Origin: Tricharina praecox
Lineage: Eukaryota
Length of the DNA stretch: 64,000 nucleotides
Direction of reading: 5' to 3'
NCBI RefSeq assembly: GCF_024521635.1
Contig: NW_026250405.1
Coordinates: 310,001-374,000, forward strand
Position numbers and translations under genes: made by a program. This document shows, piece by piece, positions 6,150 through 62,770 of this stretch (position 1 is its first letter; every line of letters begins with the position of its first letter). The notes beneath the pieces were generated by a model. The model ran no database searches. It saw nothing but the letters and a program-made list of their open reading frames with translations, and had not been told where the DNA came from.

Positions 6150-7610
6150 TCTCTCGCGACCTATCAAGATCATAGCAAATTCTACCCGTGCACCCTCCGT
6201 TTCCACGCCACTTTGCAACCCAACTTCCATCAGGCGGCCCGAGGTGAGTTTCTCTGCTCTCTGCTGTAGCCTACAGAGACGAGCACTGAAACCCAGACAA
6301 TCGAAGTCATCCCGACCGTCGAGTGATGAGTGACAAACTTTGGTAAGGACTTCACCAGCCTCGCACTCGCGATCGAGTGATAATCGCAGAAGGACAGTTC
6401 GAGATCATCCCCAGCAAGCGGCTGGATTCCCGTGATTCAATGGGTGATAGGACGTGCATCTTTGAATTGTTGCTGGTGGCTAGCCATCGGCGAAACTTGT
6501 GGTGGGATCTAGTGGTCGTGCGGCTCCTCAAACCTTTATCTATAAAATACCCCCTCCGCTCCTCCTCCTCTGGTTCTTCTCTCCTTCTCTTCACATTATT
6601 AACCACAACTTCCATTCCTTCTATCGATACTCCTGCTTGATTCACTTGACTGATCTGTTGCCTTCCGTCTCAAGACCCCGTGCGGTGCGGAACGCAACCC
6701 GGTGGTCTCTTCCGCCCTTGTTTTTGCTTGCCTCTTATTTTGTTTTCCTAGAGTTTGACCGTTCCTTCCCCCTTCTCTCTCCCCCTGACCCTCGCCGCGG
6801 TCTTGTTTTCTTTTTTTCGATGTTTTCCCTTGCGTTCGTTTCATTTCACTACCCAGCAGCTTCGTCTGGTGTGTAACACTCCACACCATTTCTTCTGGCC
6901 ATTTCATGATACGCCGATCCCGGATAAGACCTTGATCACTTCCAGCGGCAAGATGGTTGCTGCCGCTGCAGCGCCTTGTGTTCCGGCTCTCATCGAGTGC
7001 GGCCACAAGGTCTTCATCTTCAGCCAGTTCAAGTCTGGCTGAACAGAGAAAGAAGTACAACTTGGTTGTACTGCCAAGTTGTACGTGGAGGTTTTCTTCC
7101 GTTGATGCGATCGCAGCAAAGGTCTTTCCTCCTGGTCATGTGTGACGCACATGACCGAAGCCAATGTTGTTGCTCTAGCCGCTGCGCGAGACGACGACAT
7201 CGGCTTCCGAACCGACTGCACTGTAGTCCGCAGTCTGAACTCGCGATCCATGGCTGCTTCCTGGCGTGCGTGTCCTTAGTTCGTGCTCTTCAACCACGTA
7301 CGTCGTATCGTGGCCGCCAACACTACTCCAGCGCGCGAGGGGACTTTGGCCCTTCTCCGGCGATAGGCGCATGTTTGCTTGCTCAGAGTCCTTTGATCTG
7401 ATGAGGAAATTTTGGTGGGGACTCGCCCTCTGGCGGCGGCGAAAAAAAGAGCCTGCCCAGCCGTAGCAGCGAGGAACTGATGGATCCGTGCAACCAGTCT
7501 AGCAAGCAGACGGTTTCAGCTTGTAGCAACAATAGACGGATCCAACCCTCGAGGCCCGGCTTAGCAGAAAAGGTCGGGGTTGTCTCTGCTGCTGCCTGCA
7601 AAGTAAAACG
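6150..7610 (+). repeat. Modular dispersed repeat, copy with antisense LINE-tail module at its left end
   Basis: Colinear and highly similar to 7918-9040; shares hairpin and tandem modules with the other copies. Confidence 0.85.
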
Positions 7611-7614
7611 GCCG

Positions 7615-7915
7615 CTGGTTTGTTCATTCATTGATTGCATACGACCTATGTAGATCATGGCAATATCATTTACCCGTGCACCCCCCCGTTTCCACGCCAC
7701 TTTCCAACCCAAATTTCGTCAGGCGGCCCGAGATGTAGCTTTCCCTGCCCTCCACCCTGGCCTTTCCCGACAGCATGTGAGCGCAGGAAGACGCAATGAC
7801 CGTTCCCCGCCACGCCCTCCTCTACCGCTCGGCCTGCCCCCCGCACCCGCGCCCACCGACGCCATTGTGCCGTCCCACCTCCACCGCAACTCTCTAGTCC
7901 GCTATCGAGAGACGG
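7615..7915 (-). mobile_element. 5'-truncated non-LTR retrotransposon 3' UTR fragment
   Basis: Colinear with 20818-21110 and similar to the LINE 3' UTR at 44900-45050. Ends ...GCCATGATCTACATAGGTCGTATGCAATCAATGAATGAACAAA on the minus strand. Confidence 0.7.
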
Positions 7916-7917
7916 AC

Positions 7918-9680
7918 ATTTTTTTTTGTTCAGTCATTAATTGCATGTGACCTAGGTATCTAGATCATGGCAGTATCATCAACACGTGCGCCCCCCGTTT
8001 CCACGCCACTGTCCAGCCGAGCTTTCGTCAGGCGGCCCAATGTGACTTTCCCTGTCCTCCGCCCTGTCCTGGAGAGACGAGCATTGAAACCCAGACAATC
8101 GAAGTCGTCCCAGCCGTTGAGTGATAAATGACGAACTGCGCTAATGACGTCACCGGCCTCGCGCTCGCGATCGAGTGATATACGCAGCATACACAGCAAG
8201 TGGCTGGATTCCCGCGATTCAATGGGTGATAGGGCTTGAACCTTTGAATTGTCGCGATCATCCCCAGCAAGCGGCTGGATTCCCGTGATTCAATGGGTGA
8301 TAGGACGTGCATCTTTGAATTGTTGCTGGTGGCTAGCCGTCGGCGAAACTTGTGGTGGGGTCTAGTGGTCGTGCGGCTCCTGAACCACCTATAAAAGACC
8401 ACCTCCGCTCCTCCTCCTCTACTTCTTCTCTCCTTCTCTTCACATCATCAACCACAACTTCCCTTTCTTCAATCGATATTCCTGCATGGTTCACTTGACT
8501 GTTCTGTTGTCTGCTGTCTCAAAACCTTTGCGGTGGCAAGCGCAACCTGGTGGTCTCTTCCCCCCCTTGTTTTTACTTATATCTCTTGTTTTTGCTTTCC
8601 TGGGGTTTGACCGTTCCTTTCCCCCTTCTCCCTCCCCCTCACCCTCGCCGCGGTCTTGTTTTCGTTTTTTTCGATGTTTTCCCTTGCGTTCGTTTCATTT
8701 CACCACCCAGCAGCTTCGTCTGGTGTGTAACACTCCACACCACTTCTTCTGGCCATTTTGTGATAAGCCGATCTCGGATAAGACCTTGATCACTTCCAGC
8801 GCCCTGTGTTTCGGCTCTCATCGAGCGCGGCCACAAGGTCTTAATGTTTAGTCAGTTTAAGGCTGGCTCAGAAAGAAGTATAACTTGGTTGTACTGCCAA
8901 GTTGTACGTGGAGGTTTTCTTCCTTTGCTGCGATCGCAGCAAAGGTCTTTCCTCCTGGCCATGCATGTCTGCGGGCATGCATGGCTAAAGTCAAATGTTG
9001 TTGCTCTGGCCGCTGCGCGAGACTACGACATTGACCTGGTGCGCGGGTTGGTTGCTGCCGCTGGGGGCGGTATCAGTGGGCGTGAGAAGTGGCAAGCATG
9101 CATTTTCGCCGGAGAACTATATCTTCTTCGACAGCTGGAGCATACCTATCCAGCCTATAGTCATTGGCGACAACCTCGTCTCCTACGCCCACCGTCTAGG
9201 TACGACAGATGATACAGTTCGTACCCACGAAACAAACAGACGTCAAAGAACCACTTTTCACACGTCTCCGCCTACCTATCTTATCTTCCTCTCCCTGGAG
9301 TCTATCTCGGAAGCCCTCACTCAGAGCCATAATTTCACTTTCCCCCTGTGTCGAGGAATGATGAATGATCTTCTAAAACGACTTCCGTCTATCGCTATTC
9401 GGATTGAAGTAACTATCACCATTCCCCCGTTGACGCTCTCTTTTTTTGGTTTATTCATTGCTTTCGAGTGCGAATGAATGAAGCTTCCTCGTGCACCCCC
9501 CCCCCCCCGCCCAACTGTCGTCTCGGTGTGTCTCTTTAGGTTGGCTGGTGTGGCAGCTTCAAACTGCACACGCATGCGCGTAGGAGGGCTTCGTGTGGAG
9601 AGTAGCAAACGTGCTGGCCACCATATCACGTTTGTCGATATTATTTTTTGGTTTTGTTTAATCAGTAATTATTTACGCGT
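7918..9680 (+). repeat. Modular dispersed repeat, copy with antisense LINE tail and T-tract at its left end
   Basis: Similar to 6150-7200. Segment 9150-9510 matches 55690-56040, and 9590-9680 matches 54215-54320. Confidence 0.85.
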
Positions 9681-9681
9681 C

Positions 9682-10559
9682 TGACACGTCTACAATGTCT
9701 TCCCTCGTCCGCCGCAATCCATCCCCCCCTTTCACCTCTACAACCACAACTAAATAATGCCACCAAAGCGGGAGCTGGAAGTAGAGATCTATGAGTCTAC
9801 TGAGATTTGGATTCAAAAGGCAATCGACGTTGTGGAGGCAAAAACCAACAATTATTTACACGAGCCTGCTCAAGAGCACCCCGCTCGCGAGCACCCCGCT
9901 CTCCCTTTTCACCACCACAACCACAATTAAATAATGCTACCAAAGCGGAAGCTTAAATTAGAGCATCATAAGTCTATTGAGACTCGGATTCAAAAGACTA
10001 TCGACGTTGTGGAGGCAAAACCAAACAATTATTTACACGAGCCCTCTCGCGAGCAGCGCGCACACCAGCACCAGCGGGCTTCTTCGCTTGCGCTTAGTCA
10101 TTCGCACGCGCGAGGATCGAATTCGCACAGCTCGTAACCATCTTCTTGCGAGCACACTTCCTAACCGTATCTAAGAGATCTAGATAGAGGCAAACTGTAA
10201 GTTCCTGATCTCCTGAAACTGTTTTATTACTTCCTGTTCGGCCACTCTTCGATTGTTGACCGTTTCATCTCGCTCTTAGTCTTTGTGGTGGAAGTTCGAA
10301 CTCCCGAGCAGCAGCAGGTTATGTTTTTCCTCCCCTCTCTCCTCCACAACGTCGATAGCCTCTTAAATCCAAGTCTCAATAGACTCATAGGTCTCTACTT
10401 CAAGTTCCCGCTTTGGTGGCATTATTTAGTTGTGGTTGTGGTGAAAGGAGGGGTTGATTGCGGCGGACAAGGGAAGAAATAGTAGACGTGTCAAACCTGC
10501 TTAACATGTCGGGCACTCCGTAGGAGTGCCCTGGGTGGTGTTAACCACCTTGGCACGAG
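9682..10559. mobile_element. Foldback remnant of a pogo/Fot1-like DNA transposon (inverted 5' ends, transposase N-terminus relic)
   Basis: Inverted arms at about 9682-9840 and 10341-10493, with a tandem copy at about 9900-10050. Translation MPPKR..E(T)RIQKAIDVVEAK..YLHE resembles the HTH_psq start of Fot1/pogo transposases. The right end abuts TA (10560-61) and interrupts a host repeat. Confidence 0.6.
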
Positions 10560-11920
10560 TATTCCTCGCTGTGGGAACGTGTTTATAATCACTCACTCGG
10601 AGTTCGAATGACTGCGTGTGAGGTTGAACATGTGTCGACACCTTGGAATGTAGCGGTGTTTGCTATGAAGCAAACTTTTAAGTCGCGGCTAGTGCGGTAG
10701 TAGTGGTTGCTTGGAATTTCGATTCTCACCCGCTTCACCTATAAAACCCTCCTTTCCTTCCCAACTCTTCCTCCAATTCTCCTTCCCCTATCCACTCATT
10801 TAACGTCTTCTCCTTCTTTCCCGTCCGGCACTAATTGTTGGTTCATGGTACTGACCTAGGATTATTTTAGTCAACATCAGCTTTTTCAACTACATCCTCA
10901 GTACGTCCTCTCTCCCTCCTCCACCTTGTCACAGCTTAATACTTACTTCTCTTCTTTATTCGTCAACAGAGGTCCTCCGCTGAATATTCCCCCTTCCTTC
11001 CTTCCTTCCCACCCACCCACCCTCCTTCCTTCCACCTAAGCCCGAGCTCAATCGTCGAGGTACGTTGTTCTCTCTCCCCCCAACGTTTAACTTCCAGGAT
11101 AACCTTACAGAGCTATCCTGCTCAGCCGTAGTAGCGAGGAACTGAGGGATCCGTGCAACCGGTCCACAAAGTAAACTGTTGCAAGAGACGGATCCAACCC
11201 TCGAGGCTGAGCAGAAAAGATCCAAGGACGGGGTTTTCTCTTGTGCTGCCGGCACAAGTTCTTTCCCCCTTCCTCCGGGGGTCCAAGTCGGTCAAGACTC
11301 GACTTGCCGACTTGCTCCCGTTGGATGGCCTCGCCGATACCGGGTGACAGACGGTCTCGTGACGGGGAAGAAAAAAATAAGAAGTATGACTTGGTTACTA
11401 TCCCCCCAAGTTATATGCGGAGGTTTTCTTCCTTTGCTGTGAGTCTGTGACAGCAAAGGTCTTTCCTCCTGGCCATGCATGTGTGAGAGACATGCATGGC
11501 CAAGGCCAGCTCCCCGAAACTGCGGGACAGACGGTTTCGGACGAGCAAACCAAAAAACCAAAGAAGTATAACTTAGGCCACTGTCCCCCCCTCAGGTTAT
11601 ACGCGTATAGCCTGGTTTACTACCCCCCCCCTCCCCCCCCAGGTTATACGCGGAGGTTTTCTTCTTTTTGAAGGTGTTTCCTCCGGCCATGCATGTGAAG
11701 CATGCATGGCCATTGGCCAAAATGTTGTTGCTCAGGCGGCAGTGCGAGACAACGACATTGGCTTTTTAGACGAGTGCACCTTCGAAACACAGCTGCTTCT
11801 CATGTCCCTGCTAGGTAGTTCCTAGTCGCTAACCGCGGTTATGCGGACGGTTCTTTTTCCCACAAACCTCCAGGCCGGAGACGGGATCCAGAGGGAAGCA
11901 CACACAGAAGAATGAGAAGA
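10560..11920 (+). repeat. Modular dispersed repeat, promoter plus hairpin core copy
   Basis: Core 11085-11850 is near-identical to 41360-42110 and to the reverse complement of 61560-62010. Confidence 0.92.
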
Positions 11921-11922
11921 TA

Positions 11923-12562
11923 AAGTACTAGGTCAAAATTTTCGTACGATGGCTGTTTTACACCAAAAATGCCCATTTTCAAGTAACCAAAACCCACCCT
12001 TCACGTGGCAGAAAAAAAGCGAGTCTTTCATAGAAGCTTTAGAATCGCATGATGCATCACATAGAAGAAGCCTGACGATTTTTGCTTCGTATTGGTGGCG
12101 CATGGTACGGTGTTGTGCACGGGTTGGAGAGTGATTTCAGATTTTGTATGGGGCCCCATACAAAATTATTGCGTGACAACCAGTTTCAACACCAACTTCT
12201 CTCCCATACGGCATTACTCAACCACCACCAGTTAGAATTATGTGCCAATTTCAATCGAGGTTCTCTACCTGATTTAGAAGACCTTCTAATGGTCCACATT
12301 TTTTTATACTATCTTATGGTTGCTGTATCTATGGCGGGAAATGACCTGCCTCGGTGAAAGGGAAATCCGCCAAGCCATCTACTTCGCATAAAATAATCCG
12401 CCTGGCGAACTGGAAATCTCATTGAAGCTTTATTAGTATATATTCATAATATATGCCAATTATTAGTACTCTCTTAAGTGTGGTTGTTGTGTTATAGAGA
12501 TATATGTCTGTGGTGTGGTGGCGCTTTTGGGGAGGTGTACGAAAACTTTTGACTTGGTACTT
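11923..12562. mobile_element. Tc1/mariner-type MITE (640 bp)
   Basis: Imperfect TIRs AAGTACTAGGTCAAAATTTTCGTAC / AAGTACCAAGTCAAAAGTTTTCGTAC with flanking TA. The empty site is visible at about 42712-42730. The interior is homologous to 19560-19800 in reverse. Confidence 0.8.
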
Positions 12563-13290
12563 TATAAAAGTTGATCGTCTATTCGGTAGATGATGGATGA
12601 GAGAAGAATGAGAGCGAACGACCAAGAGAGCAGACGACTCGCTGGACCCACCAATGTTGACGCTCCCTACTAACCACACAGGTACGGTTCCTCACTGCCG
12701 CCGACAAGTCCTGCTCTCGCCCACCGCTCCTCCATCGGTCCGCCAAAACGGCTACGAAGTATCGTGCCCCCCAACTACCCCCAAGTTATACCCTATATTT
12801 CCGGCGCTTTTAAATTTGTTACACCTCCCTCTGTGGACCCAATCTTAACTGTTGTAAAAAGGTTGGCAACGAGTGATTTCAAAAGCATTCGGCGAGTGGG
12901 CTCTTCCGCAGAGCAACTTAGGTAACTCAGTACAGTGTATCAGCTTGATCGATTGCAATCTCAATGCATGGACCATGGCTGCTTCTCAGCCTAGTTTATA
13001 GTACCCAAACACGGCTGGGTTACGAAGTACTGTGGCCCCCAACACTCCAAGTTCTATCAAATACTATTTTCCTCCTGGCCAGTATGTCCGAGAGGCATTG
13101 CCGCCTAAGCGGAATTTGGTTGATCTGGCCGCTGCGCGAGAGGATTATATCGGCGTAAATCGACTGCAGTCTCGACTCTCGATCCACGGGCCTCGGCTGC
13201 TTCTTGTGTCCCTGGTTCCTAGTTACCAACCACGGCTACGAAGTATCGGGGACCTCATTGGGATACTCCGTGTTCTATCAAATACTTCTC
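12563..13290 (+). repeat. Central module (12563-12730) and tandem ~190-bp subunits (12950-13290) of the modular repeat
   Basis: Matches 42720-42900, and the subunit GGCCGCTGCGCGAG..ATCCACGG.CTGCTTC..CAACCACGGCTACGAAGTATCG seen in other copies. Confidence 0.75.
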
Positions 13291-14009
13291 TTGTAATAAT
13301 TTTCCTTGCTACTGTGTCCTGAAACCGGAGTGGAAACGAATTCTTGCGATACCGGCGGTACTCAGTCCGATCGTGTCCGAGTGCTTTGCATGATCCGGGC
13401 TAACTGCTTAAGTAAGTAACCCTGCTCGCGATAGACGCCTTTACGCGATATGCTATTACCCGATCTACCATCTTATCAGGAACTACTATCATGGTAGAGT
13501 TATACCCATGTGGCAGTCCTCCTCGTCAGCGGTATAGTCGTGGTCCTCGGCATTATGCCGCAGCCCGGCCGTGCTGCGCCGCTGTTTTAACATCTTCCGA
13601 CATGGAGCTTGGAGAGAGTACAGGTCGGGAAGAGCCTTGTCAGTTACCGGTATTCTCGGCTACAGTGTGTGGGCGCAGCGTCGGATGACTACAGGGTTGA
13701 ATGCTGCCAGTGAGGAGACCGGGGGTTCTTGTTGGAGGCCTGTCGGTACATATGTATGAAGTGAAGAGGCGGGTGTCCGTCCGTCTCACACCGGTACTTA
13801 CATAGTCCGAGAGAGCGTAGAGAGCGAATCCATGATGCCCGAACTCCATGTAATCGAAGGCCTAGTAATAGTCTTCAACGCTCTTGCAGATTCATGCCCA
13901 CGCGGTGATACCTATCACTGCCAGCATGGCGTCGAGACATCGCCCTACTAGTACCGCTGCTCATAAGTATCCGCAGTCACGGAGCGATGGAGGGTCTTCC
14001 GGCGAGAGG

Positions 14010-18904: not shown

Positions 18905-20760
18905 TCACTCGGCGGCAGTTTTACTTTGCCGGCAGCGGAAGAGAAGAGCCCGACCTTTTCTGACGCCGGGAAGCAGCCGTGAATCGGGAGTGCAACCTGC
19001 CGTCGAAGCCGATATCATCCATTCGCACAGCGGCCAGAGCAGCAACATTTGACTTCGGTCATGTCCGTCACTCATGGCGAGGAGGGCATAATTATATGAT
19101 AGAACATGGAGTAGTATTGGCGGCCACGATACTTCGTCGCCTTGGTTGACGACCAAGAATCAGGGACACACCGGGAAGCAGCCGTGGATCGAGAGTGCAG
19201 AAGACTGCAGTCGATTCAGAAGCCGATGTCGTTGTCTCGCACAGCGGCCAGAGCAACAACATTTGGCCAATGGCGCATGCATCTCACTCCTGCATGGCTA
19301 GGAGGTAAGACCTTTACTCTGAAAGGAAGACGACCTCCGCGTGTAACATGGGGGTTAATAAACCACGTTATATGCGGATAACTTGGGGCGGTAGTAGACC
19401 AAGTTATACAGTACTAGGACAAAAAGGATTGGACAGTGCCCGTTTTACACCAAAAATGGCCATTTTCAGCCACCGCTACAACCACAACGTATCGAAAAAA
19501 ATCAGAGACCCTCGGGAGACCTCTATAACTACACCAAAAACGATATGAGAACTCCTCACGGAGTTCCGAACCGTTGTTGTGGAGCAATACCATACGGGGA
19601 AAAGTTAATGGTTGCCAAGTAGCTTTTTGTATGGGAGCCCCATACAAAATGTCATGTCATTTTTCAACTCCTGTATAATATGACGTCATATAGCCCTAAT
19701 CCGTGATGAAAGTCGTCAAAGTTTTTATTGATGAAGAAGCTTGTGATTCTAACGCTTCTGTGAAAGAGACGATTTTTTTCCACCAGGTGGAGGGTATGTT
19801 TGGGTGTAAAACGGGCTTTGTCCATTCCTTTTTGTCAGGGTACTTTACTTCTTTGGTTATTTATCTGCTCGTCCGAAACCGTCTGTAGCCCGGTTTCGGA
19901 GGCATGGGCCGTGGCCACGCATGTAGCATGTCTCTCACACATGACATACATGGCCAGGAGGAAAGACCTTTGCTCAATGCTCTCTCACAGCATTTCACAG
20001 CAAAGGAAGAAAATCTCCGCGTATAACCTGGGAGGGGGGTAGTAGACCAGGTTATACGCGTATAACTCGGAAGTTATACTTTCTTTGTTTTTGTCTTCCT
20101 CGTCAACACGAAACCGTCTGTCACCCGGTTTCGGAGAGGCCATCCTCCGGGAGCAAGTCGGCTCTCACCCGACTTAGACTCCCGGAGGAAGGGGGAAAGA
20201 ACTTCGCTGGCAGCAGAAGAGAAAACCCCATCCTTAGATCTTTTCTGCTCAGCCTCGAGGGTTGGATCCGTCTACTGTTGCTGAAACCGTCTACTTTGTA
20301 GACCGATTGCACGGATCCCTCAGTTCCTCGCTACTCCGGCTGAGCAGGATAACTGTGTAAGGTTATCCTGGAAGTATAAAGTTGGGAGGGGAGAGAACGA
20401 CGTACCTCGACGATTGAGCCCGGGCTCATGGAAGGAAGGAGGGAGGGTGGGTGGAAAGGAAGGAGCGATGGAGGGTGGGAAGGAAGGAGGAAGGATGAAT
20501 AGCCGAGGAGGAAAGGAAGCTGTGATGGTTGTAAAGAGAAGGAGAGAAGGAGGGGCAGAGGGGGGATGGTATTATAGCTATTTTTGGGCGGCTAGTTTAC
20601 ACTCAGTTTCGTCGCCGCCAGAGGGCTAGTCCCCACCAAAAAGTGCTTGGAACGACCGAGAAAACGTGACGTTCTAATTGCCGCAGACGGTCGATCACCT
20701 CGCACGCCGAATATCACACGCCTGAAAGCTAACCGTCCGTCTACATTCACTAGACCACGC
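18905..20760 (-). repeat. Modular dispersed repeat, minus-strand copy (contains a MITE)
   Basis: Reverse complement of 19850-20410 is closely similar to 54760-55300; 20400-20690 matches 62030-62340. Confidence 0.9.
19409..19845. mobile_element. Tc1/mariner-type MITE (437 bp) with TA target-site duplication
   Basis: 43-bp imperfect TIRs CAGTACTAGGACAAAAAGGATTGGACAGTGCCCGTTTTACACC / AAGTACCCTGACAAAAAGGAATGGACAAAGCCCGTTTTACACC. Removing it and one TA restores CCAAGTTATACTTCTTTGGTTATT, as seen at 43273-43296. Confidence 0.9.
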
Positions 20761-20817
20761 AGATCGAGTGATCAGCGGTGCAACTAATGTGCGACAAACT
20801 GAGCATCTTCTAAAGCT

Positions 20818-21339: not shown

Positions 21340-22280
21340 GCAGGAAAGAGTATTGAATAGAACATGGATTACCCCAATGGGGGGCCACGAGACTTCGTAG
21401 CCATGGTTGACGAATACTTAAAATCAGGGACACGCCGGGAAGCAGCTGTGGATCGAAAGCGTTGTCAATCAAGCGATAGGATCCTCTCGCGCACTGCAGC
21501 TGCCAGAGAAATAATACTTCGTAGCCGTGATTAAAGAATAGAGACTAGCTAAGGACACGGGAAGCAGCCGTGGATGGATATTCAAGAGAGAGAGATCTTC
21601 CTGTTTTATTTCGCATGCAGCCCCTTACTCTACTAGTATTATTGCAGCACACCGGCGGTGGTAGGCGACCGAGTGATTGGAAGTGAATCGCTGGCGGCGG
21701 TAGACCTCAGTGGACCGCCGTAGCTAGGTTTGTGGCCTCGGCACCAAGAGCTTACTTTTTGCCATTATCGCAAGGTATTCTTTGGGTACCCTCTCTTTTA
21801 TTTCCGTAGTATAGACTGTATTTACATGGTATCAATACAATTCACATTCATATCAACAATCCTCTCACGCCGCGGCCAGAAGAGCAGCAACAATCATAGC
21901 TGTCATTGATGACTAAGTAGCATCCGGCAGTGGACCGCAACACTGGAAGTAGCCGTCAATCACGAGTGCAGTCAATTACGCCGATACTCCATACCCTTCG
22001 CCGAACGACGGCCAAGTTGCAACTATCGGAGAAGATTGAGTTCTCCGCTGAGTCAGCACTTTTGCCACTTGGTACGCCGACTGCTACCGGCCGCAGCAGC
22101 AACTAACTCACCCACACACCAAGTCAATGTCGCTGTCTCGCACAGCGGCCAGAGCAACAACATTAGGAGGAAAGACCTTTGCCCGTCGTTCACAGGAAAG
22201 GAAGAAAACCTCCGCGTATAACTTGGTAAAACAAGTTATACTTCTTTAATAGCTCTGTAAGGTTATCCTGGAAGTAAACA
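21340..22280 (-). repeat. Degraded mosaic of modular-repeat subunits
   Basis: CAGGGACACGCCGGGAAGCAGC subunits; 21950-22160 matches 61200-61400. Confidence 0.75.
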
Positions 22281-22489
22281 GAGGGTGGGTTTATATTACT
22301 CAACCATATCAGGGAATATGGGAATCGGCGGATTCTTCCAGTCGTTGAGAAAGCCGATCAGGCCTAGGAATGGTCCGTCCAGTCTGTCCTGGGCCATCCG
22401 CCGCACGGGACCTAATTTATTAGGCCCGGAATATCAAGGACTTACTAGGTGACCGGGCAAGCCAGCGGAGGATCTAAGCCCTGTTGCCG

Positions 22490-23050
22490 AATAGAGAAGA
22501 CAAGTAAGTATTAAGCTAAGCGGACGGGGTGGAGGAGGGAGAGAGGACGTACCGAAACAAGTAAAACACGTCGTCGCTTATTACTGTGCCATTACAGCCA
22601 GTATCCCTAGTGTCGGTTTCTCCCTAGTATCTGTTTCAGACAGTGAAAAATACCTAAAGTCAGCAGCATGAACCATCAAATAGTGGGACGGGAAAGAAGG
22701 AGAAGAAGTTAATGAGTGGAGGGGAGAGGAGAAAGGGAGGAAGAGTTGGGAGGAAAGGTGTGATTTTAGAGGTGAAGCGAGTGCGATTTCACGCAACCAC
22801 AACTAGCGCACTAGCCGCGACTCAAAAGTTTGCTTTTCAGTAGACAACCGCTTCATTCGAAGGTGTCGACACATGTTCGACATCAACGCAATCATTCGAG
22901 TGCCGAGTGAGTGATTATGAACAAGTTCCCACAGCGCGGAATAGCAACAAACGTGCATGCAATTACTGACTAAACAAAAACAAAAAAAAGAATAGCGACA
23001 AACGCGAGCTGGTGGCGAGTACGTCTGTTACTTTCCACATGAAGCCCTCC
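22490..23050 (-). repeat. Promoter module of the modular repeat
   Basis: Reverse complement matches 9590-9680 plus 10560-10970, and 54215-54710. Confidence 0.85.
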
Positions 23051-24074
23051 CACGAGCAGGAGTCAAGGTCCGAATCAACGGTCGAATACCGAGTGTGGAA
23101 TGATGAATGCGAAAACTCGGTCTCTCAGAGATCCCAGCTGCCGTGCTTGTGTTTTGTGTTCGGCGTTCGCCCGCCACTCCCACCCCTCAGGCTCTCCCAC
23201 CAACCTGCGCCGCTCCAAGCAATACTACAGTGCTATATACACGGATGCTATGTACCGGTATATACGGGATGTCTACTGCTGACCGCACAACCTACTGTAG
23301 TCAACGTCTACCGACGAGAGTACGTGCTTCCTATATGCCGGTAGAACATGCTACAGTGCCATGTACGGTACCCTCACCATCCCCGCCATCCCCGCCTTCT
23401 GGACTCTTCGAGCTTCCATCCATCCATCTATCCTTGTATGTATGCAGCGCATGTTGCCGTCTGATGTGGGGGTCTACAAAGAGTACATATGGTGCGCCTA
23501 GATGCGCCGACTGTCCGTGCACTGACCTCACCGACCCTCTAGGACCGGCAAGATTATCCGGGCACCACATGTATAATCATCATTCTCCTTTGTTTACCCT
23601 GGTGATACGAGTGACATTCACGCAACATTCACACAGCATTCACGCAACAGCTTCACTGTATCAATGGCACTTCCAAGTATAGGTACTGCGACCAGTTTGC
23701 TTTGACGACTTCTACTCTATCTCGATTCTGCGATGTCCATCCCCTCATTTAACCATACCATACCGGTATTCCCGGCCCGATCCGATCCCGATCCCTAGAA
23801 TAACACACAAGAAACAAGAAAAACAAGAGGTATCGCCAAGCCATGCCTCATAAAAAGCCGAGGGGATAAAAAAGAAGAAAAAAAAGACCAGAAAATCGGA
23901 AACCCCGTTAAAAAGTTGAATCCCCAAACAAGAAAGAAAAAAAGAAAGCGGAAAAACACCCCATGAACCCCGATAAAACAATGCCCAAAAAAGACATGAA
24001 CAAGACGAAACCAGTCCCACTAAAACATTATGCCCATCCTGTCATCTCTTGCCTGTAGTAGTTGCCAGAGCAGT

Positions 24075-41059: not shown

Positions 41060-43760
41060 AAATTTCTGGTACTAGCGGTGTGGGGGGTAAGGTGCTTGGA
41101 ATCCGACCCGCTACACCTATAACTTCTCTCCTCCGAACCTCTATCCCTCCTTACTACTTAACTGCTATACTCCCAACTCTTCCTCCCTCTCTCCTCCAAC
41201 CATTCAGAAAATCGCTATTCACTCTTTAACCTCTTCATCTCATTCTTTCCCGTCCGGCACTACTTGTTGATTCATACTACTGACTGATTGATTAGTTTTC
41301 ATGGTCCGCTATCGACGCCGAGTTTTATCATTTCAGGTACGTCCTCCCCCCCCCACCTTTTGACTTCCAGGATAACCTTACAGAGCTATCCTGCTCAGCC
41401 GCAGTAGCGAGGAACTGAGGGATCCGTGCAACCGGTCCACAAAGTAAACTGTTGCAAGAGACGGATCGAACCCTCGAGGCTGAGCAGAGAAGATCCAAGG
41501 ACGGGGTTTTCTCTTGTGCTGCCGGCACAAGTTCTTTCCCCCTTCCTCCGGGGGTCCAATTCGGTCAAGACTCGACTTGCCGATTTGCTCCCGTTGGATG
41601 GCCTCGCCGACACCGGGTGACAGCCGGTCTCGTGACGAGGAAGAAAAAAATAAGAAGTATAACTTGGTTACTATCCCCCCCAAGTTATCTGCGGAGGTTT
41701 TCTTCCTTTGCTGTGAGTCTGTGACAGCAAAGGTCTTTCCTCCTGGCCATGTGTGTGTGAGAGACATGCATGGCCAAGGCCAGCTCCCCGAAATCGCGGG
41801 ACAGACGGTTTCGGACGAACAAACAAAAAAACCAAAGAAGTATAACTTGGGCTACTGTCCCCCCTCAAGCCATACGCGTATAACCTGGTTTACTACCCCC
41901 CCAGGTTATACGCGGAGGTTTTCTTCCTTTTAAAAGTCTTTCCTCCGGCCATGCATGTGAAGCATGCATGGTCATTGGCCAAAATGCTGTTGCTCTGGCC
42001 GCTGTGCGAGATTACGACATTGGCTTCTTAAACGACTGCATCCTCGATACACAGCTGCTTCTCGTGTTCCTCCTAGTTCCTAGTTGCTAACTGCGGTTAT
42101 GCGGATAGTTGTTTGCTGACAAACCTCCAGGCCGGAGGCGGCATTGGGAAGACGTCCTACATAGGAAGTACCGGTGGACGTCAACTACGAGTAGTGCAGT
42201 CCGCAGAACACATCCCGAATGTACTACCTATACCGGGAATATATCCTCCGAGTATACCATAATATTTCTTGCTTGGACGGGGCCAGTTGGTGGGAGAGGT
42301 GGGATAGGTGGGTGAACGCCGAAGAATGCACGGCAGCTGGGCAGCGGCGGGATGTCGTTTCTAGTATTCATCATTCGTCATTCATCAGATGGCCAACATG
42401 GACGGTTAATAAACGGCACAGGCACGTAGAAGACGTACAACACAGAGGGCTACCGATATACACGGATGGATCTCGGACGGACACCGAAGCGGTCGACTAA
42501 GTAATACGCTGTCATCTTGCGACACGGCACCCAATGGAAAGACTGCAAGTTACATCCGGGAAGTATACGCAGGCATCGCGCGAGGCTTCCCTGCAGCTGT
42601 CGATAGGTTGCACACCCTCGGCAGAGAAACTTTGCAGACGGCTCTTTTGCTAATATATACCCCTCCAGGCCGGAGGCGGGATCGTGAGGATAGCACACAC
42701 AGAAGAAAAAGGAGATAAAGGTTGATCGTCTATTCTGTAGAGGTTGATCAAAAAAGGAGAAGACGAAGAAGAAGAAGAAGAAGAAGAATAAAGTAAAACC
42801 CCACCGGATCCACACAGTCGACCCCGCCACGGCCGCTAACGGTGATTCCCACCGCTACTAACCACATTGGTTTGCTGCCGCCAATAGGATTCCTCCATTG
42901 CTCCGCCACAATGTCTCCCACACACGGTCAGGTAGAAGGACGTATTTGATGGAACATGGAGTATCCCAATGGGAGCAACGAAACTTCCAAATCGTGGTTG
43001 ACGACTAGGAACCAGGGACACGCCGGGAAGCAGCCGGTGATGCAAGGATGGAGGGGAAGGAGAAAACAACACACCTTCACGCGCGGTCACTCGCCGCATT
43101 AGACAGTACGGCCGAACCAACAAGCAGGCCAAATATCGTTGTATCGCGCAGCGACCAGAGCAACAGCATTTGGCCAATGGCACATGCATCTCACTCGTGC
43201 ATGGCCAGGAGGTAAGACCTTTCAACTTTGAAAGGAAGACGACCTCCGCGTATAACTTGGGGTGGTAGAGGACCAAGTTATACTTCTTTGGTTATTTGAT
43301 CTCATCCGAAACCGTCCGTCGCCCGGTTTCGGAGAGGCGGGCCTTGGCCATGCATGTGACATGTCTCTCACACATGACATGCATGGCCCGGAGGAAAGAA
43401 GGAGAGGAAGTGGTTAAAGACTGAATAGCGATTGTTCTGAATGGGGGGAGGAGAGAGGGAGGAAGAGTCGGGAGGAAAGGAGGATTTTATAGCTGATTGT
43501 GATTCCAAGCAACCAATACTACCGCACTAGCCGCGACTCAAAAGCTAGCTTTTCAGCAAACACCGCTACATTCCAAGTTGTCGACACATGTTTGACATCA
43601 CACGCAGTCATTCGAGCTACGAGTGAGTGAGTATGAACTTGTTCCCACCGCGCGGAATAACGACAAACGCGCAGGTAATTACTGATAAAACAAAAACAAA
43701 AACAAAAAATAGCGATAAAGGTGGGATGGTGGCCAGCACGTTTGCTTTTTTTTCTTGATG
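41060..43760. repeat. Foldback-arranged modular repeat: plus arm (~41060-42120), central module (~42120-42910), minus arm (~42930-43760)
   Basis: The arms contain the same modules in opposite orientation, and each module matches other copies in the window. Confidence 0.85.
42142..42661 (+). mobile_element. Internal LINE fragment (RNase H N-terminal region) flanked by an 18-bp direct repeat
   Basis: LPIYTDGSRTDTEA..YAVILRHGTQWK matches the non-LTR RNase H motif. CCTCCAGGCCGGAGGCGG at 42124-42141 and 42662-42679; a single (empty-site) copy at about 11867. Confidence 0.75.
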
Positions 43761-43849
43761 AACTCTCTACGAGCAGACATTTGCAGCTTTGATGCTTCAA
43801 CCGCAGCCGGCGTAAAGAGTCACAGCGAGACGAGAAAGGGTGATACATA

Positions 43850-53100: not shown

Positions 53101-53116
53101 CCACTCCAAAGCCAAA

Positions 53117-54214: not shown

Positions 54215-56045
54215 TAACGTGCTGGCCACCATATCACGTTTGTCGCTATTCTTTTTTTTTTTTTTTTGGGGGGGGGGGGGGGGGAGGGGGGGTTTATTGT
54301 TTAATCAGTAACTGCTGGTACGTTTGTCGCTACATTTTGTTTTGATAATTCTTTGCGCATTTCTAGCTATTCCTCGCTGTGGGAATCTGTTCATTGGTGC
54401 TCACTCGGACGTCGAGTGACGTTGTTTGATGTCAAATATCTGTCAACACCTTGGAATGTAGCAGTGTTTGCTGCAAAACAAACTTTTGAGTCGAGGCTAG
54501 TGCGCTAGAAGTGGTTGCTTGGAATTCCACCAACTCCTATAAAACCCACCTTTCCTCCGAACTCTTCCTCCCTTTCTCCTTCCTCTCTCCATTCATAAAC
54601 GTCTTCTCCTTCTTTCCCGTCCGACATTAATTGGTGATTCATGCTACTGACCTAGATTAGTTTAATTGTTTTCCACGGTCCGCCACCAACGATAGGGATA
54701 CTGGCAGTAATGCTACCTTCCTTCCTTCCTTCCTTCCACCTAGGCTCGAGCTCAAACCTGGAGGTAAGTCCTTCTCTCACCCCACTTTTGACTTCCAGGA
54801 TAACCTTACAGAGCTATCCTGCTCAGCCGTAGCAGCGAAGAACCGAGGGATCCGTGTAACCGGTCTACATAGACTGTTGCAAGAGACAGATCCAACCCTC
54901 GCGGCTGAGTAGAAAAGATCTACGGACGGGGTTTTCTCTTCTGCTGCCGGCGAAGTTCTTTCCCCCTTCCTCCGGGAGTCCAAGTCGGGTGAGAGCCGAC
55001 TTGCTCCCGGTGGATGGCCTCTCCGGAACCGGGTGACAGACGGTTTCGTGTTGACGAGGAAAAAAAAAACAAAGAAAGTATAACTTCCGAGTTATACGCG
55101 TATAACCTGGTTTACTATCCCCCCAGGTTATACGCGGAGGTTTTCTTCCTTTGCTGTGAGAGAGCAAAGGTCTTTCCTCCTGGCCATGTATGTCATGTGT
55201 GACAGACATGCCACATGCGTGGCCCACGGCCCATGCCTCCGAAACTGGGCTACAGACGGTTTCGGACGAGCAAATAAATAACTAAAGAAGTATAACTTGG
55301 TCTACTACCGCCCCAAGTTATACGCGTATAACGTGGTTTACTACCTATCCCCCCATGTTATACGCGGAGGTCGTCTTCCTTTCAGAGCAAAGGTTTTACC
55401 TCCTGGCCTTGCATGAGTGAGATGCATGTGCCATTGGCCAAATGTTGTTCCTCTGGCCGCTGTGCGAGAGAAGAACATTTGACTTGGTGCGCGAGTTGTT
55501 TTGAGGCGGGGTAGCAGTGGGCGTACGGGGTGTGGCAAGCGTGCATGCTCGCTGGAGTACTATATCTTCCCCGACAGCTGGCGCATCTTTCGGCGTTGAG
55601 GACGGTGCGGTTTCCATCTCGATCTCGGTCGCTGCTCCCGTTGATGCTGTCGTTTTGTGTTTAATATCACTCGCATACAGCAAATCTAGACAACCTACTA
55701 GTATGGTCATTAGCGACAACCTCGTCTCCCATGCCCTCCGTCTGGGTAAAACGGATGACAGAGTTCGTACCCACGAAGAAAACATCAAAGAACCGCTTTT
55801 CACACGTCCCCGCCTATTCATCTCAACCTCCTCTCCCTATCCATCTCGGAAGCCCTCAGCGCCATATTTTCCCTTTCCCCATGTTTCGAGGGATGATGGA
55901 TGGCCTTCTGAGATCCCTTGCCGGTCTATCGCTATTCAGATTGAAGTAAGTATCACCATTCCCTCGCTAATTTTCTCTTTTTTTTATCGTATATTCATTC
56001 ATGCCGAGTGCGAATACATAAAGCTTCCCCGTGCACCCCCGTCAA
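54215..56045 (+). repeat. Modular dispersed repeat, long copy (promoter, hairpin core, distal module)
   Basis: Matches 10560-10870, the reverse complement of 19240-20410, and 9000-9510. Confidence 0.9.
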
Positions 56046-56429
56046 ACCGACTCACCTCTGCCTCACCTCCGCCACACCTAGCCCAAACAGCAGCCTTCTC
56101 CAGGCCATCCATCATTCGCCTTTAGACTAGTGACCTCTCATTCTCATAAAGAAAACGGGACCGATTTACATCTAACTCTTTGCTGCTGTACTGGTTCTCT
56201 CTCTCCCGAGGAGCTTTTCATACACCAGTACCTACATACTTGAACATGAGGCAACGGTTGGAGTTGGGGCTGCTGCAGTGCTCGCCTCATTCTACCGAGT
56301 ATTTCGACGACACTAATCGACGTTGTGGTGGTGGTGGTGGTCGTGGCGTACGATAAAACCTTTTTATCAGAGTCACTCGGCGTCGTTTCGAACGAGTTGC
56401 TAACTACGTCTCGAACGAACGGCCACATT

Positions 56430-56487
56430 TTCGCCATAGTCTAGATAGGCCGCATGCGAAATAAAACAGGAAGATCTCTCTCTCTCG
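56430..56487 (+). mobile_element. Tiny retroposon 3' end with AATAAA and (TC)n tail
   Basis: CGCCATAGTCTAGATAGGCCGCATGCGAAATAAAACAGGAAGATCTCTCTCTCTC; the reverse complement occurs at 4985-5055. Confidence 0.65.
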
Positions 56488-57119
56488 GACGGCCACATCG
56501 AGGATCTCACAAGCCACAAGTCCTGACCAAACCCATAACGACGAAAACGCAAATCTATTTGAAACAACACAACTCGCGCAACTCCCTGATACGATACCAT
56601 GGAGGAAAGGACGAGGGAATGGCATCGCAGACATCAGAGTGCGTATTGAGATGGTCTTGGATGCACTCGACTTATGCAACCACTCCCTGCTATACTAGTA
56701 GTGTGATGATATGGGATGGAGAAATAAAGTTTCATTCGAAACGTCGGCACCTGCAATCCGAGCGATATATCGTGATTTATTTGAAGCAACAAATGCGCAT
56801 TCGCGTATTCCATTCCACCACGTCATCAAGCCTTCGGCAGCAACTTCGCCTTCTTCGCCTCATCAAAGACGTGCTCCTAGTCGGTGATAGTATCTACCGT
56901 CCCAAAGAAGACCAACCTCCTCGCCTTCTCAGAGGCAATAACGAGGTTCTATGTACTCTATAGCCAGAATCCCATCCGCGAACTTCCAAATCGCGCCATC
57001 CCACACCTTCTGATCGGCTAGGGAAAAAGGATGGAAAGGAGGAGGAGATGAGTCTGCTTCCGAGGAGGAAGAGGAATCTACAAAGATGGAGGAGGAGATG
57101 GGAGGCCGGTAACCAGACA

Positions 57120-57275
57120 CTGCTTGTTGATTCATGCTACTGACTTATAATTAGTTCTCACGGGCCGATATCGACTCCGAGGTCTACTCTTTGAGGTACG
57201 TGCTCCCCCCCCCTCTTGATTCCCGGCTACTTTCCGGCGTGTCCCTGGTTGCTAGTCGTCCGACGTCAACCACGG
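57120..57275 (+). repeat. Fragment of the modular repeat
   Basis: TTGTTGATTCATGCTACTGAC, GAGGTACGT and GGCGTGTCCCTGGTT match 41263-41345 and the tandem subunit. Confidence 0.65.
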
Positions 57276-59400: not shown

Positions 59401-60832
59401 ATGCTCGTCAAGAACATCTTCCCGTTGCTGGCACTCGCCAGCATTGTTGCGGCCAGCCCGTCTCGCCCTACGCCTCCAGAGAAGAACATGCGACTGGTTA
59501 AGATATCTGAGGATGACGCCGGAACTTGGGTGACCGAGGACGAGAAGTTCGATAAGTTCATCTCGAAACACATTCACTTTGTCGACATCACCGAGACTTG
59601 GGTAGGTTCACTGGTTAATTCCGCCTTCCGCCATATGTGCTTACATGTGTCAGGAACTGGAAGAGCTCGGTGCTGCAAGGAAGATCGGGAAGCGACAGAA
59701 TAGCTTTCCGTCAGGTCCTACTCACCAGAGTGTGGCAGCTCCGTTGATTTCCGCGTTGTCGACAAAAAACTTGCAGAGTTGGGCGACGACCTTAACAAAG
59801 TAAAGCTCGGCCAGGTGATTCTTTAGCGAAGATGCGCCGCACTGACACAACTTGTAGCTACTACAATCGGTACTACAAATCCACCTATGGAACACAGGCC
59901 GGAACGTGGATGTACAACACCGTCGTCAGCGTCGCCGCCAGCAATCCTCTGATCACTGTCTCGAAATTCACCCACAGCTACTCGCAGCCATCCGTGATTG
60001 CGAAGATTTCTGGAACATCTGGCTCCGTCGGTACGTGTTTTCCTGCCCATGCAACTGGATGGTACGCTAACCGGTTTCATCCAAAGTGGTCGTTTCCGCA
60101 CACTTTGACTCCATCGGCAGTACCATCAGTGGTAGAGCTCCAGGAGCAGATGATAATGCTTCCGGGATTGTCACCATTCTAGAAGCCCTTCGGGTTCTCG
60201 CTACCGCCAAGTATAAGCCCTTCAATACGTTGGAATTCCACTTCTACAGCGGCGAAGAAGGCGGGTTGTTGGGTTCGCGGGACATCATGAATAATTATGT
60301 CAAAAACAACGTCGACGTTCTTGCGATTATGAATCAGGTAAGATTTCTTTTCGTCCTGCGTGGAACGGGAAACTAGTTGCTGATGGGTGGGGTGGATAGG
60401 ACATGACTGGCTATAGTCCCAACAATGTTATCGCGATCTACACCGACTTCGTCAGCACGCCTCTCACGAACTTCCTAAAAACCCTCGTCCCCGTGTACAC
60501 CCAGTTACCGCTCGTCACCGACCAGTGCGGATACGCATGTAGCGACCAGTGAGTTCGCAATCGAGCGACAATTGATGCGAGTGGCACTGATCGGTGAATA
60601 GCGGATCGGCCAACTCGGCGGGATTCCCGGCTGCCTACGTGTGCGATGAGAACATGCAGGACGCTTCGCCCTACATTCACTCGGCTCAGGATACCTATGC
60701 CACCCTGAACTTTGCTCACATTCTTCAGCATGTGAAGGTGAGCGATTCCATAAATTGTGTCGCCGGGTTCGGCTATCGCTAATCATAACTTAGTTCACGA
60801 TCGGCTTCCTCGTCGAGGCTTCGTATTTCTAG
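59401..60832 (+). CDS. lap1: Secreted leucine aminopeptidase (M28, Lap1 type); exons 59401-59601, 59654-59799, 59858-60030, 60087-60337, 60400-60548, 60602-60737, 60794-60832
   Basis: Signal peptide, FVDITE, NRYYKS, SAHFDS, APGADDNASG, SGEEGGLLGS, NQDMTGY, CGYACSDH and PYIHS. Six GT-AG introns keep frame. Confidence 0.95.
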
Positions 60833-61119
60833 GTTGGAGGCGGATATTCCTTGAGGGATATATTTGTAGATATAGGATAGATGCCGAATGGTCGTGGAAA
60901 TATGTGAAAATCACGGGAATTTGCACTTCTAGTGGAAAGTGTGTCTTGAACCATCAGAACCACAATACAATGCGTTAAACGCTTTCTTAGAACCTGGAGA
61001 CCGATTCCATCTAGTCACAGCCTAATCTGGGATGCTGGTGGTGGGACCGAGTGGGTGGATGAGTGGCAATTTCTGAGCTGAATTCGAAACTCCACGGCAA
61101 TGCGATCGATGGGATACCA

Positions 61120-62770
61120 AATTCATTTCCTCCCTCCTGTCACCGACAGCTCTCCCATCGCTCCGCCACACCGACTATGAACCAGGGACAAGGGAAGTAG
61201 CCGTGGATCGAGAGTGCAGTCAATTAAGCCGATACACCGTACTCGACGCAGAATGATCGCAAACTTTCGGAGAAGATTTAGTTCTCCGTCGAGTACGCAG
61301 ATTTGCCACTTCGTACGCCCAGTGCTACCGCGCCTAGCAGCAACCAACCCGCGAACTCAGTCAATGTCGTTCTCTCGCGCGGCGGCCAGAGGAACAACAT
61401 TTGGCCGATGGCACATGCATGCCTGACCTGCATGCATGGCCAGAGGCAAGACCTGTCAACTTTGAAAGGAAGAAAACCTCCACGTATAACATGGGGGGGT
61501 AGTAGGCCAAATTATACTTCTTTGGTTATTTGATCTCATCCAAAACCGTCCGTCGCCCGGTTTCGGAGAGGTGGGCCTTGGCCATGCATGTGGCATGTCT
61601 CTCACACATGACATGCATGGCCAGGAGGAAAGACCTTTGCTGTCACAGACTCACAGCAAAGGAAGAAAACCTCCGCATATAACTTGGGGGAATGGTAACC
61701 AAGTTATACTTCTTATTTTTTTCTTCCTCGTCACGAGACCGGCTGTCACCCGGTGTCGGCGAGGCCATCCACCGGGAGCAAGTCGGCAAGTCGAGTCTTG
61801 ACCGACGTGAACTCCCGGAGGAAGGGGGAAAGAATTTGTGCCGGCAGCACAAGAGAAAACCCCGTCCGTAGATCTTTTCTGCTAAGCCTGGAGGGTTGGA
61901 TCCGTCTCTTGCAACAGTGTGCTTTGTAACCAGTTGCACGGATCCCTCAGTTCCTCGCTGCTGCGGCTGAGCAGGATAGCTCTGTAAGGTTATCCTGGAA
62001 GTATAAAGTTGGGGGGAGAGAGAACGACGTACCTTGACGATTGAGCTCGGGCTTAGGTGGAAGGAAGGAGGGTGGATGGGTGGGCGGGTGGGGGGAAAGG
62101 AAGGAGGTAAGGAGGCTGGAAAGGAATGATCGATGGAGGGTGGGAAGGAAGGAAGAAAAGATGAATAGCCGAGGAGGAAAGGAAGCTGTGATGGTTGTAA
62201 AGAGAAGGAGAGAAGGAGGATCAGATGGCGGGTGGTTTTATAGGTGGTTTGGGGCGGCTAGTTTACATTCAGTTTCGCCGCCGCCAGACGGCTAGACCCC
62301 ACCAAAACTTGCTCGTCACTTGGAACGATCGAGAAAACGTGACGCAAATCGTTGGTGACGGGGTGGAAGTGTCGCCAGGCCGCTAGAACCGCACCAAAAC
62401 ATGCTCATCAGATGGATCGAGCGAGAAAATTTGACCCGCTGATCGCTGGAGACGGGTTAATCACCTCGCGCGCCGAACGTGTCACTGGTTCGGCTCTTCA
62501 AAGTTCAAACCGCCCAGTGCCCACTGCAGGTGCTCGCCGCGCACAAAGGCAATGTCGTTCTCTCACACAGCGGCCAGAGCAACAACACTTGACCTATGGC
62601 TATGAATACCTCACATGCATGGCCAAGAGGAAAGGCTTTTCAACTTTGAAAGAAAGAAGACCTCCGCGTACCTATAACATGGGGGTTTAGTAGGCCATGT
62701 TATGCGCGTATAGCTTGGGCCGGTAATAGACCAAGTTATACTCCTTTGTTTTTGTTGTTCTCGTCCGTAA
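61120..62770 (-). repeat. Modular dispersed repeat, minus-strand copy plus an extra subunit at 62540-62770
   Basis: Reverse complement of 61590-62090 is near-identical to 11000-11510 and 41360-41790. Confidence 0.92.

Follow-up and report, generated by a model that had tools for sequence, protein, structure and literature searches.

A 64,000-nucleotide stretch of the Tricharina praecox genome (G000:C28:310001-374000, here called the window) carries numerous copies and fragments of a modular repeat that combines promoter-like heads, short intron-like units and a chain of hairpins. The original prediction, made from the letters of the window alone, described these copies as a non-coding family and offered two interpretations, a recently spreading non-autonomous element or a dispersed set of structured non-coding RNAs (ncRNAs) transcribed by RNA polymerase II (Pol II). 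We confirmed that the family is real. That prediction missed both a motif resembling the expression and nuclear retention element (ENE) and a fragment of an LSH/DDM1-type gene. What appears to be new is a C-interrupted ENE-like loop in each unit of the chain, together with AAAGA(A) tracts between the units; judged by its sequence, the family looks most like an ENE-bearing repeat, and among these most like the MALAT1 type.

The explanation that we favor, and to which we give an even chance, is that the family is a non-autonomous repeat with a gene-like layout, in which source copies produce a self-protecting non-coding Pol II RNA. Each C-interrupted U-rich loop would bind the AAAGA(A) tract that comes next in the genomic sequence, giving a short triple helix of the MALAT1 type; this would stall 3'-to-5' decay without the need for a poly(A) tail. 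A few source copies would be under selection for the RNA fold, while daughters would be copied from a tandem or longer-than-unit template, appear close to their parent and then decay. Many daughters would start within the 3' portion of the preceding unit, with promoter and introns retained, and ectopic gene conversion between neighbors would swap cores behind different heads and tails.

A clustered family of modular cassettes

Self-BLAST of the window at E<=1e-5 identified 158 distinct repeat pairs, which cover all eleven coordinates at which repeats had been predicted; against a comparison set of 302 kb, 18,364 of the 64,000 bases are repeated. The genome comprises 38.4 Mb in 104 contigs, and our genome counts rest on the best-scored matches plus approximately 0.7 Mb of compared stretches. 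The core at 11076-11887 has 47 genome matches, 40 of them scored, and an exact stem-loop pattern has 35 genome matches, every one at a locus already known, with 0 in the control. We put the family at approximately 35-45 core-bearing places in this Pezizomycete genome. The copies are clustered: among the 31 with an intact intron-exon anchor (the anchored copies), 8 lie at 290-398 kb of C28, 6 at 1005-1100 kb of C2 and 4 on C83. Most of the flanking stretches compared hold no family module. The window is a hotspot of the family, and genome-wide abundance is modest.

We mapped 48 hand-defined modules over 302 kb and later over 471 kb, and observed a single order: head A or B (a TATA box and CT-rich leader), one to three short intron-like units, a long hairpin (L), two or three units, an end hairpin (E) and one of several tails. 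Each unit consists of an A-rich tract, one or two hairpins, a stem-loop whose internal loop is rich in U, and further hairpins. This map matches the shuffled modules, paired TATA/CT-rich heads, core, hairpin block and repeated unit (190-230 bp or so) that had been predicted, except that two full copies have a third kind of head (8255-8700). Among the copy starts given earlier, those at 6150 and 7918 belong to a separate, commoner repeat, Q. The cores are less alike than the description "near-identical" implied, since 11076-11887 is 91% identical to 41349-42144 over 813 bp and 83% identical to 61359-62084 over 781 bp.

Heads A and B are confined to family loci (22 and 19 matches, respectively). 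A TATA-like match lies within 520 bp upstream in 29 of the 31 anchored copies, and the TATA box is altered in about a third of copies. The last intron-like unit has the donor GTACGT in 19 of the 31 anchored copies and GTAAGT in 8, and the other 4 carry an altered one; its GATAAC branch site is weak. Folding of the core gives a z score of -11.4 in the sense direction and -7.2 in the antisense direction (20 shuffles each).

Two side observations concern the heads. A further TATA/CT-rich head without a core lies downstream of a Q repeat at L082:6700-7400. The upstream region of head A contains, in many copies, a piece of approximately 30 bp with a poly(T/A) end (9636-9680), flanked by a duplication of approximately 15 bp, for which L008 and L013 hold empty alleles; it looks like a severely truncated retro-insertion that was later inherited.

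ENE-like stem-loops and A-rich tracts

Every unit contains a G-rich stem, UUUUCU(U), an inner stem, (U)UCUUU and a C-rich stem, such that the U-rich internal loop is interrupted by C on both strands and closed by G-C-rich stems. Genomic AAAGA(A) tracts sit between the units. We searched with a descriptor built on the general ENE shape, independent of the family sequence, and obtained 9 matches in the window, all of them in the family, compared with 0, 0, 0, 0, 0 and 1 in six shuffles. Across 471 kb, 40 matches were co-oriented with family markers and none was opposite to them; 5 further matches lay far from the markers (one is a family fragment), and control loci gave 4 matches in 296 kb. Co-orientation across copies is inherited and therefore amounts to a single observation; the relevant point is that the TATA and GT..AG signals predict the same strand that carries the U-rich loops.

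A family pattern caught 78 units (24 first, 21 second and 33 last). Loops were intact in 22 of the first units, 18 of the second and 7 of the last, and a downstream tract within 160 nt was present for 16, 18 and 2 of them, respectively. The unit that decays is thus the one without a downstream partner tract, which fits the MALAT1 register. With C on both loop strands, poly(A) would be a poor partner; AAAGA(A) would instead give three U.A-U triples, one C.G-C and one U.A-U.

Several observations weigh against this pairing. The upstream tract matches equally well (exact AAAGA at 12/24 first, 10/21 second and 27/33 last units), and changes in a loop are never matched by changes in a tract, as in two copies on C16. 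The unit pattern detects fairly intact loops only, and it caught 24 first units among the 31 anchored copies. U-to-C changes are reported in PMC12501189 to abolish triplex formation in Evade, and known ENEs of transposable elements (TEs) bind poly(A), so that C-interrupted loops should be poor poly(A) clamps.

Searches for other RNA classes returned nothing above chance. ARAGORN predicted 0 tRNA-like genes in the window, although a diverged mimic could escape detection, and neither the window, the core nor the foreign contig described below had an Rfam match above chance, or any at the gathering threshold (snoRNA, ribozyme, snRNA). Readings as a hammerhead or hairpin ribozyme, K-turn, snoRNA or telomerase RNA were rejected when no match was apparent by eye.

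A homologue in a foreign contig

A scan of 241 million metagenome records with the unit-1 pattern returned one contig, L091. The unit-2/3 pattern had 0 matches in metagenomes, and the unit-1 pattern had 0 in the viral and prokaryote collections; two viral matches of a hairpin pattern were rejected as chance. L091 has its own TATA box, then a CT-rich leader, a GTGAGT..GCTAAC..AG intron, a hairpin L whose inner part is duplicated, then AAAAAGAA and finally stem-loop 1. By BLAST, only 43-67 nt of L091 align to the family at E<1e-5, far below any copy in the genome, and the stem-loop 1 region is 92-95% identical over 43-49 nt. A covariance model trained on 26 genome copies (R1) recognized stem-loop 1 of L091 (E=2e-9); it also recognized hairpin L (E=0.009), a match that owes nothing to the search pattern. 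The inner stem of hairpin L differs by one compensatory and one wobble change, and a weak additional ENE-like unit lies upstream (E=0.25). The ENE-like polarity agrees with the TATA and intron signals in L091 as it does in the family. Retention of the plan and the motif with loss of all else is what selection on an RNA fold would leave. Against this, L091 is a single contig.

Probable selection on RNA structure

We aligned 31 cores and set 75 base pairs by hand. Changes private to one copy number 68 over the 150 paired and 52 over the 138 unpaired sites, whereas changes common to several copies number 44 and 77, respectively; shared and private changes are thus distributed differently over the stems (Fisher p=0.0019). 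Private changes within stems comprise 21 G-U and 20 A-C. Given that private changes are neutral and shared changes avoid stems, daughters appear to decay neutrally while source lineages are constrained.

Other measures of structure are less favorable. Covariation within the genome does not exceed that of shuffles (both sides change in 2 of 44 pairs, and 132 of 500 shuffles are as high). Counted by eye on the RNAalifold structure, the shared G-U to A-C ratio is 8:0, but it is only 9:5 on the hand structure. Many short inverted duplications occur in the loops, and template-switch mutation may partly create the hairpins. The lack of significant covariation and the inverted duplications, with the neutrality of private changes, are what would be expected of a neutral patchwork, in which an old promoter region was duplicated locally at random, template-switch mutation enlarged its palindromes and the RNA was under no selection. 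That scenario leaves unexplained both the depletion of shared changes in stems and a foreign contig with the same plan, near-identical loops and unalignable flanks, and we regard it as very improbable.

If instead most copies were expressed and held by selection together with concerted evolution, the family would be a host-functional, clustered set of long non-coding RNA (lncRNA) genes akin to Pinci1. Such a gene set would account for the TATA-like matches, a donor that toggles between two consensus forms and the architecture kept in L091. It would also suit the setting: the genes of the window are ordinary fungal ones (a ZIP transporter, malic enzyme, subtilisin and cerato-platanin, with long gaps between), and no transposase was found among 145 scanned of 188 neighboring long frames. 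It does not account for private changes that are as frequent on stems as off them, for copies that a miniature inverted-repeat transposable element (MITE) or a foldback interrupts or that lack the greater part of the core, or for the altered third of TATA boxes. We consider this reading unlikely.

Spread, module shuffling and termini

The nearest relative lies within the same cluster for 16 of the 31 copies (null 3.4). Head type shows no significant association with the core (16 versus 13.2, p=0.23), and in two pairs cores that are approximately 99% identical stand behind heads A and B; in these tracts identity begins in the last intron and stops just past E. Ectopic gene conversion among neighbors would explain the shuffled modules and could yield part of the local kinship. 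Mean distance from the consensus is 6.5% and pairwise identity 82-99%; since the pairs at 98-99% look like conversion tracts, "recently spreading" was an overstatement. The claim of a non-autonomous element is otherwise supported in part: private mutations are neutral, other elements are nested in copies, and a gene piece has been captured.

The ends are ragged: their distance from the anchor is 108-2276 bp on the upstream side and 532-2759 bp on the downstream side. As had been predicted, there is no common end, terminal inverted repeat (TIR), target-site duplication (TSD) or shared end motif in any of the 31 anchored copies, nor TG...CA ends with a 4-6-bp TSD. These copies share no Helitron end (5' TC, 3' hairpin plus CTRR, A|T target). 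A fixed 3' A-rich tail with TSD and intron loss, as in short or long interspersed elements (SINEs, LINEs), is absent from the family; a tail-like end occurs only in repeat Q. The difficulty of assigning a standard TE class was borne out; terminus tests for long terminal repeat (LTR), TIR, SINE and Helitron elements all failed.

In 14 of the 31 copies the 1.3 kb upstream of the head contain a 3' module in the same orientation (in 2 it is on the opposite strand), and a head lies downstream of a copy in only 2. The module map closes as two circles, E-T1-P-head A and E-head B. This fits a tandem or longer-than-unit template with random break-off, from which promoter and introns would be retained. 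As to the copying step, cDNA of an unspliced read-through RNA and a DNA circle or rolling circle seem to us equally plausible, each only tentatively, and enzyme-free local duplication a little less so.

We found no mobilizing enzyme tied to the family, which weighs against a mobile repeat of this kind. The genome has no tyrosine recombinase match (PF00589; control positive in 14/14 bacteria and archaea) and no Helitron Rep match (Helitron_like_N, PF14214; the control was silent too). The 140 reverse transcriptase (RT) matches to the RVT_1 model cluster away from family loci, and three full Gypsy-type elements with intact LTRs among them contain no family module. Two RT genes excepted, 141 frames of repeated modules hold no remnant of RT, gag or integrase. 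Three PIF1 loci considered as a Helitron partner (C31, C27, C83; L117-L119) proved to be cellular PIF1-family helicase genes, and the supposed donor gene for a tail at C61 is another fragment and no gene.

These results bear on two further explanations. In one, the family would consist of LTRs (solo or tandem) or pseudo-LTRs left by a retroelement that is now extinct and since eroded, and the ENE-like motif would be of the known LTR-borne kind. ENEs have been reported from TEs of plants and fungi, in their 5' and 3' LTRs (PMC13541005), a promoter and RNA 3' protection within one repeat is LTR-like, and the partial tandems recall the pseudo-LTRs of Penelope elements as described in PMC8969392. 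The lack of fixed ends or TSDs, of any module in common with the Gypsy-type elements, of RT matches nearby and of retroelement remnants makes this origin quite unlikely. Somewhat harder still to sustain is a non-autonomous Helitron-like or rolling-circle DNA element, whose hairpins would matter as single-stranded DNA and which would capture genes and form tandem arrays by read-through. The captured exon piece, absent TSD, retained promoter and introns, head-to-tail permutation and local spread all suit such an element; it is rendered improbable by the missing ends, by PIF1 loci that are cellular genes and by the lack of a Rep match (in a search with a silent control), and it leaves unexplained the U-rich internal loops and their agreement with TATA-intron polarity.

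Some coding remnants were observed beside the family. A remnant of a hAT dimerization domain lies approximately 90 bp upstream of one copy (L054:1621-1893). Two intact RT frames, L071:4056-6416 (787 aa) and L072:2044-4491 (816 aa), are 70% identical in DNA over 887 bp and have long low-complexity ends, with no tyrosine recombinase found and no core module shared. We take them to be DIRS/Ngaro-like; they are possibly domesticated.

A captured LSH/DDM1 exon piece

Two copies hold a recognizable coding piece of an LSH/DDM1-type gene, and both pieces match one exon of the intact host gene at G000:C35. The first (6856-7033) is 80% identical to that gene in DNA. It differs from the host gene at 17 of 31.8 synonymous and 6 of 121 replacement sites (p=2e-9), and the two pieces differ from each other at 4 of 29 synonymous and 8 of 112 replacement sites (p=0.27). 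Common to both are 13 synonymous codon changes and 3 conservative changes relative to the host gene. The captured piece is nearer to the host LSH protein than to any of the 31 homologues listed, and the best named matches of the host helicase are in Sphaerosporella, Pyronema and Wilcoxina (57-59%), which marks the host as a Pezizomycete. Since the differences are mostly synonymous and the host protein is still the closest, the source must have been a functional gene, either from a closely related lineage or a paralogue that has since been lost, and the capture was late. Identity of 80% and sense orientation make silencing of the host LSH gene unlikely. Derivation of the whole chain from an LSH gene was ruled out, as only a 172-bp exon piece aligns. 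A fuller account would combine a spliced, cross-species ncRNA family with chained MALAT1-type triple helices, an enzyme-less selfish cassette that lacks TIRs and LTRs and is copied from longer-than-unit templates, and host exon pieces acquired by template switching, one of them from the LSH/DDM1 gene of another species; we rate it as unlikely.

Coding potential and transcription

The longest ATG-started frame of the main exon is 20-126 aa and differs from copy to copy (29 copies). The first ATG lies 202-218 nt into the exon in 25 of these 29, with no shared frame, and a peptide-coding reading was rejected; a frame in the P module has no homologue. The claim that no reading frame is shared thus holds across copies, apart from the two that carry the LSH/DDM1 piece. 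The predicted structured Pol II-type ncRNA is favored by TATA-intron-hairpin polarity, the folding z scores, the depletion of shared changes in stems and L091. Weighing against it, no RNA run was listed as holding the core. Three soil RNA-library contig sets compared with 52800-62900 covered neither a core nor a neighboring gene. One 262-nt RNA-library contig spans 57078-57335 with 1 difference, at depth 3, unspliced and with no control gene, and we gave it no weight; two short RNA-library matches are to the Z repeat. Overall, each of the two original interpretations is partly supported.

Other repeats and coordinates of features

Repeat Q gave 179 first-look candidates, 40 of which were scored. 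It has a fixed poly(T/A) end and a motif in common with the N and Z repeats, and resembles a SINE or LINE 3' terminus, although a parent was not found. The MITE-like insert matches the start of L114 (G000:C61:61501) at 87%; a decayed frame beside that match is presumably a transposase. A repeat of approximately 50-240 bp (X47) and a purine-rich tandem module (R14) occur in the islands of the family (L047-L052, L057, L082 and others).

Table 1. Positions of cassette copies, their parts and other repeats in the window
Feature	Position	Strand	Remarks
Most complete copy	54216..56047	+	upstream A region, head A, two intron-like units, long hairpin, three units, end hairpin, tails T1+P
TATA-like box of head A	54536..54544	+	CT-rich leader next; putative function
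Intron-like unit 1	54619..54655	+	predicted; non-canonical GTCCGR donor, good CTGAC branch, AG
Intron-like unit 2	54764..54811	+	predicted; GTAAGT donor, weak GATAAC branch, CAG
Long hairpin L	54819..54912	+	also in foreign contig L091
A-rich tract 1	54913..54918	+	AAAAGA
ENE-like stem-loop 1	54928..54965	+	GGGG UUUUCU ... UUCUUU CCCC
A-rich tract 2	55071..55076	+	AAAGAA; proposed partner of stem-loop 1
ENE-like stem-loop 2	55136..55180	+	GGAGG UUUUCUU ... UCUUU CCUCC
A-rich tract 3	55284..55289	+	AAAGAA; proposed partner of stem-loop 2
ENE-like stem-loop 3	55366..55403	+	degenerate loop, no downstream tract
End hairpin E	55441..55480	+	tails variable beyond
Head A and full core	10560..11925	+	preceded by E-T1-P-preA of upstream copy, foldback insert between
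Eroded-head copy	41162..42340	+	core shares 91% identity with 11076-11887
Head B and full core	61172..62840	-	preceded by same-orientation partial 3' copy (62537-62771), a terminal redundancy
Head B copy	18912..20711	-	core split by MITE-like insert
Head A copy	21342..23313	-	core mostly deleted
Head A joined directly to last unit	42930..43833	-	
Head-C subfamily copy	6399..7200	+	LSH piece, one ENE-like unit, E
Second head-C copy	8252..9635	+	continues into T1, P, head A upstream region
Captured exon piece of LSH/DDM1-type SNF2 helicase gene	6856..7033	+	sense to head; PDB matches to SNF2h and LSH
Second captured LSH piece	8710..8863	+	deletion and frame break
Degenerate long hairpin and stem-loop 1	7449..7618	+	89.7 bits with model R1, outside its training set
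Tail modules T2/T3	13022..13700	+	no core
Leader/intron fragment joined to tail fragment	57116..57260	+	under sole RNA-library contig found
Repeat Q	6156-6261, 7619-7785, 7920-8070, 20817-21111, 38275, 38722, 44904-44997	.	separate family
Repeat Z	4942-5057, 21589-21622, 56430-56481		ends in (GA)n run; partial match to two RNA-library contigs
MITE-like insert within a core	19410..19846	.	~45-bp inverted ends; outside family; related sequence 11920-12165
Foldback-like insert inside copy	9679-10496		~160-bp inverted arms, 170-bp tandem duplication within

Comparison with known systems and significance

The family shares with the blunt-ended ENE triple helices of MALAT1 and MEN-beta, as presented in PMC7583470, a C-interrupted U-rich loop, G-C-rich flanking stems and a genomic A-rich tract with a complementary G. 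That 2020 review treats the G/C-interrupted, genome-tailed ENE as distinct to MALAT1 and MEN-beta among more than 200 elements (PMC7583470). Unlike in those two RNAs, two or three units stand in series in a 0.5-0.7-kb exon of a multi-copy fungal repeat, with about five possible triples, and ARAGORN predicted no tRNA-like element after the tract. The ENEs of plant and fungal TEs likewise have an internal loop rich in U, with flanking G-C pairs, and occur in repeated fungal elements (PMC7583470, PMC13541005, PMC12501189). These sources describe them as binding poly(A) and sitting in LTRs or behind a TE frame, whereas the family has no TE frame or terminus; double ENEs are described as stacking two loops in one hairpin, whereas the C-interrupted loops of the family lie in separate hairpins.

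Pinci1 of Phytophthora infestans resembles the family in being multi-copy, clustered and composed of non-coding units of approximately 700 nt (PMC12566771). It differs in having more than 400 copies and demonstrated transcripts, the account of it there mentions no comparable structure, and the copies of the present family decay neutrally. Partial tandem copies and ragged truncation recall Penelope-like retroelements with pseudo-LTRs (PMC8969392); the lack of a TSD and ends that are hard to find recall non-autonomous Helitrons (same source). In contrast to the former, the family has no fixed 3' end or Rfam ribozyme match, and a Penelope-type RT was not identified with the general RVT_1 model, the only one run; in contrast to the latter, it has no TC...hairpin-CTRR ends, and no RepHel was found (PF14214, with its silent control). 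Penelope-like retroelements retain introns, and non-autonomous Helitrons capture gene fragments, a further likeness to the family. The main text of PMC8216456, on 17 fungal structural RNAs, holds nothing on copies, triples or U-rich loops. Our literature search found no description of the family, although a single unit may be among the 200 motifs of Tycowski 2016. That study reportedly collected ENEs and double ENEs of plant and fungal TEs.

With its tandem C-interrupted loops, matching genomic tracts and foreign homologue, the family has more to offer than an ordinary TE in decay; should it produce no RNA, it reduces to an odd decayed repeat. A constrained RNA structure without termini is one that TE pipelines would miss or misclassify. 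If the proposed structure is correct, this fungal tandem version would show that the MALAT1-type design arose again, and its intact and degenerate copies, with and without a tract, would provide dozens of natural variants with which to test the rules of triplex formation.

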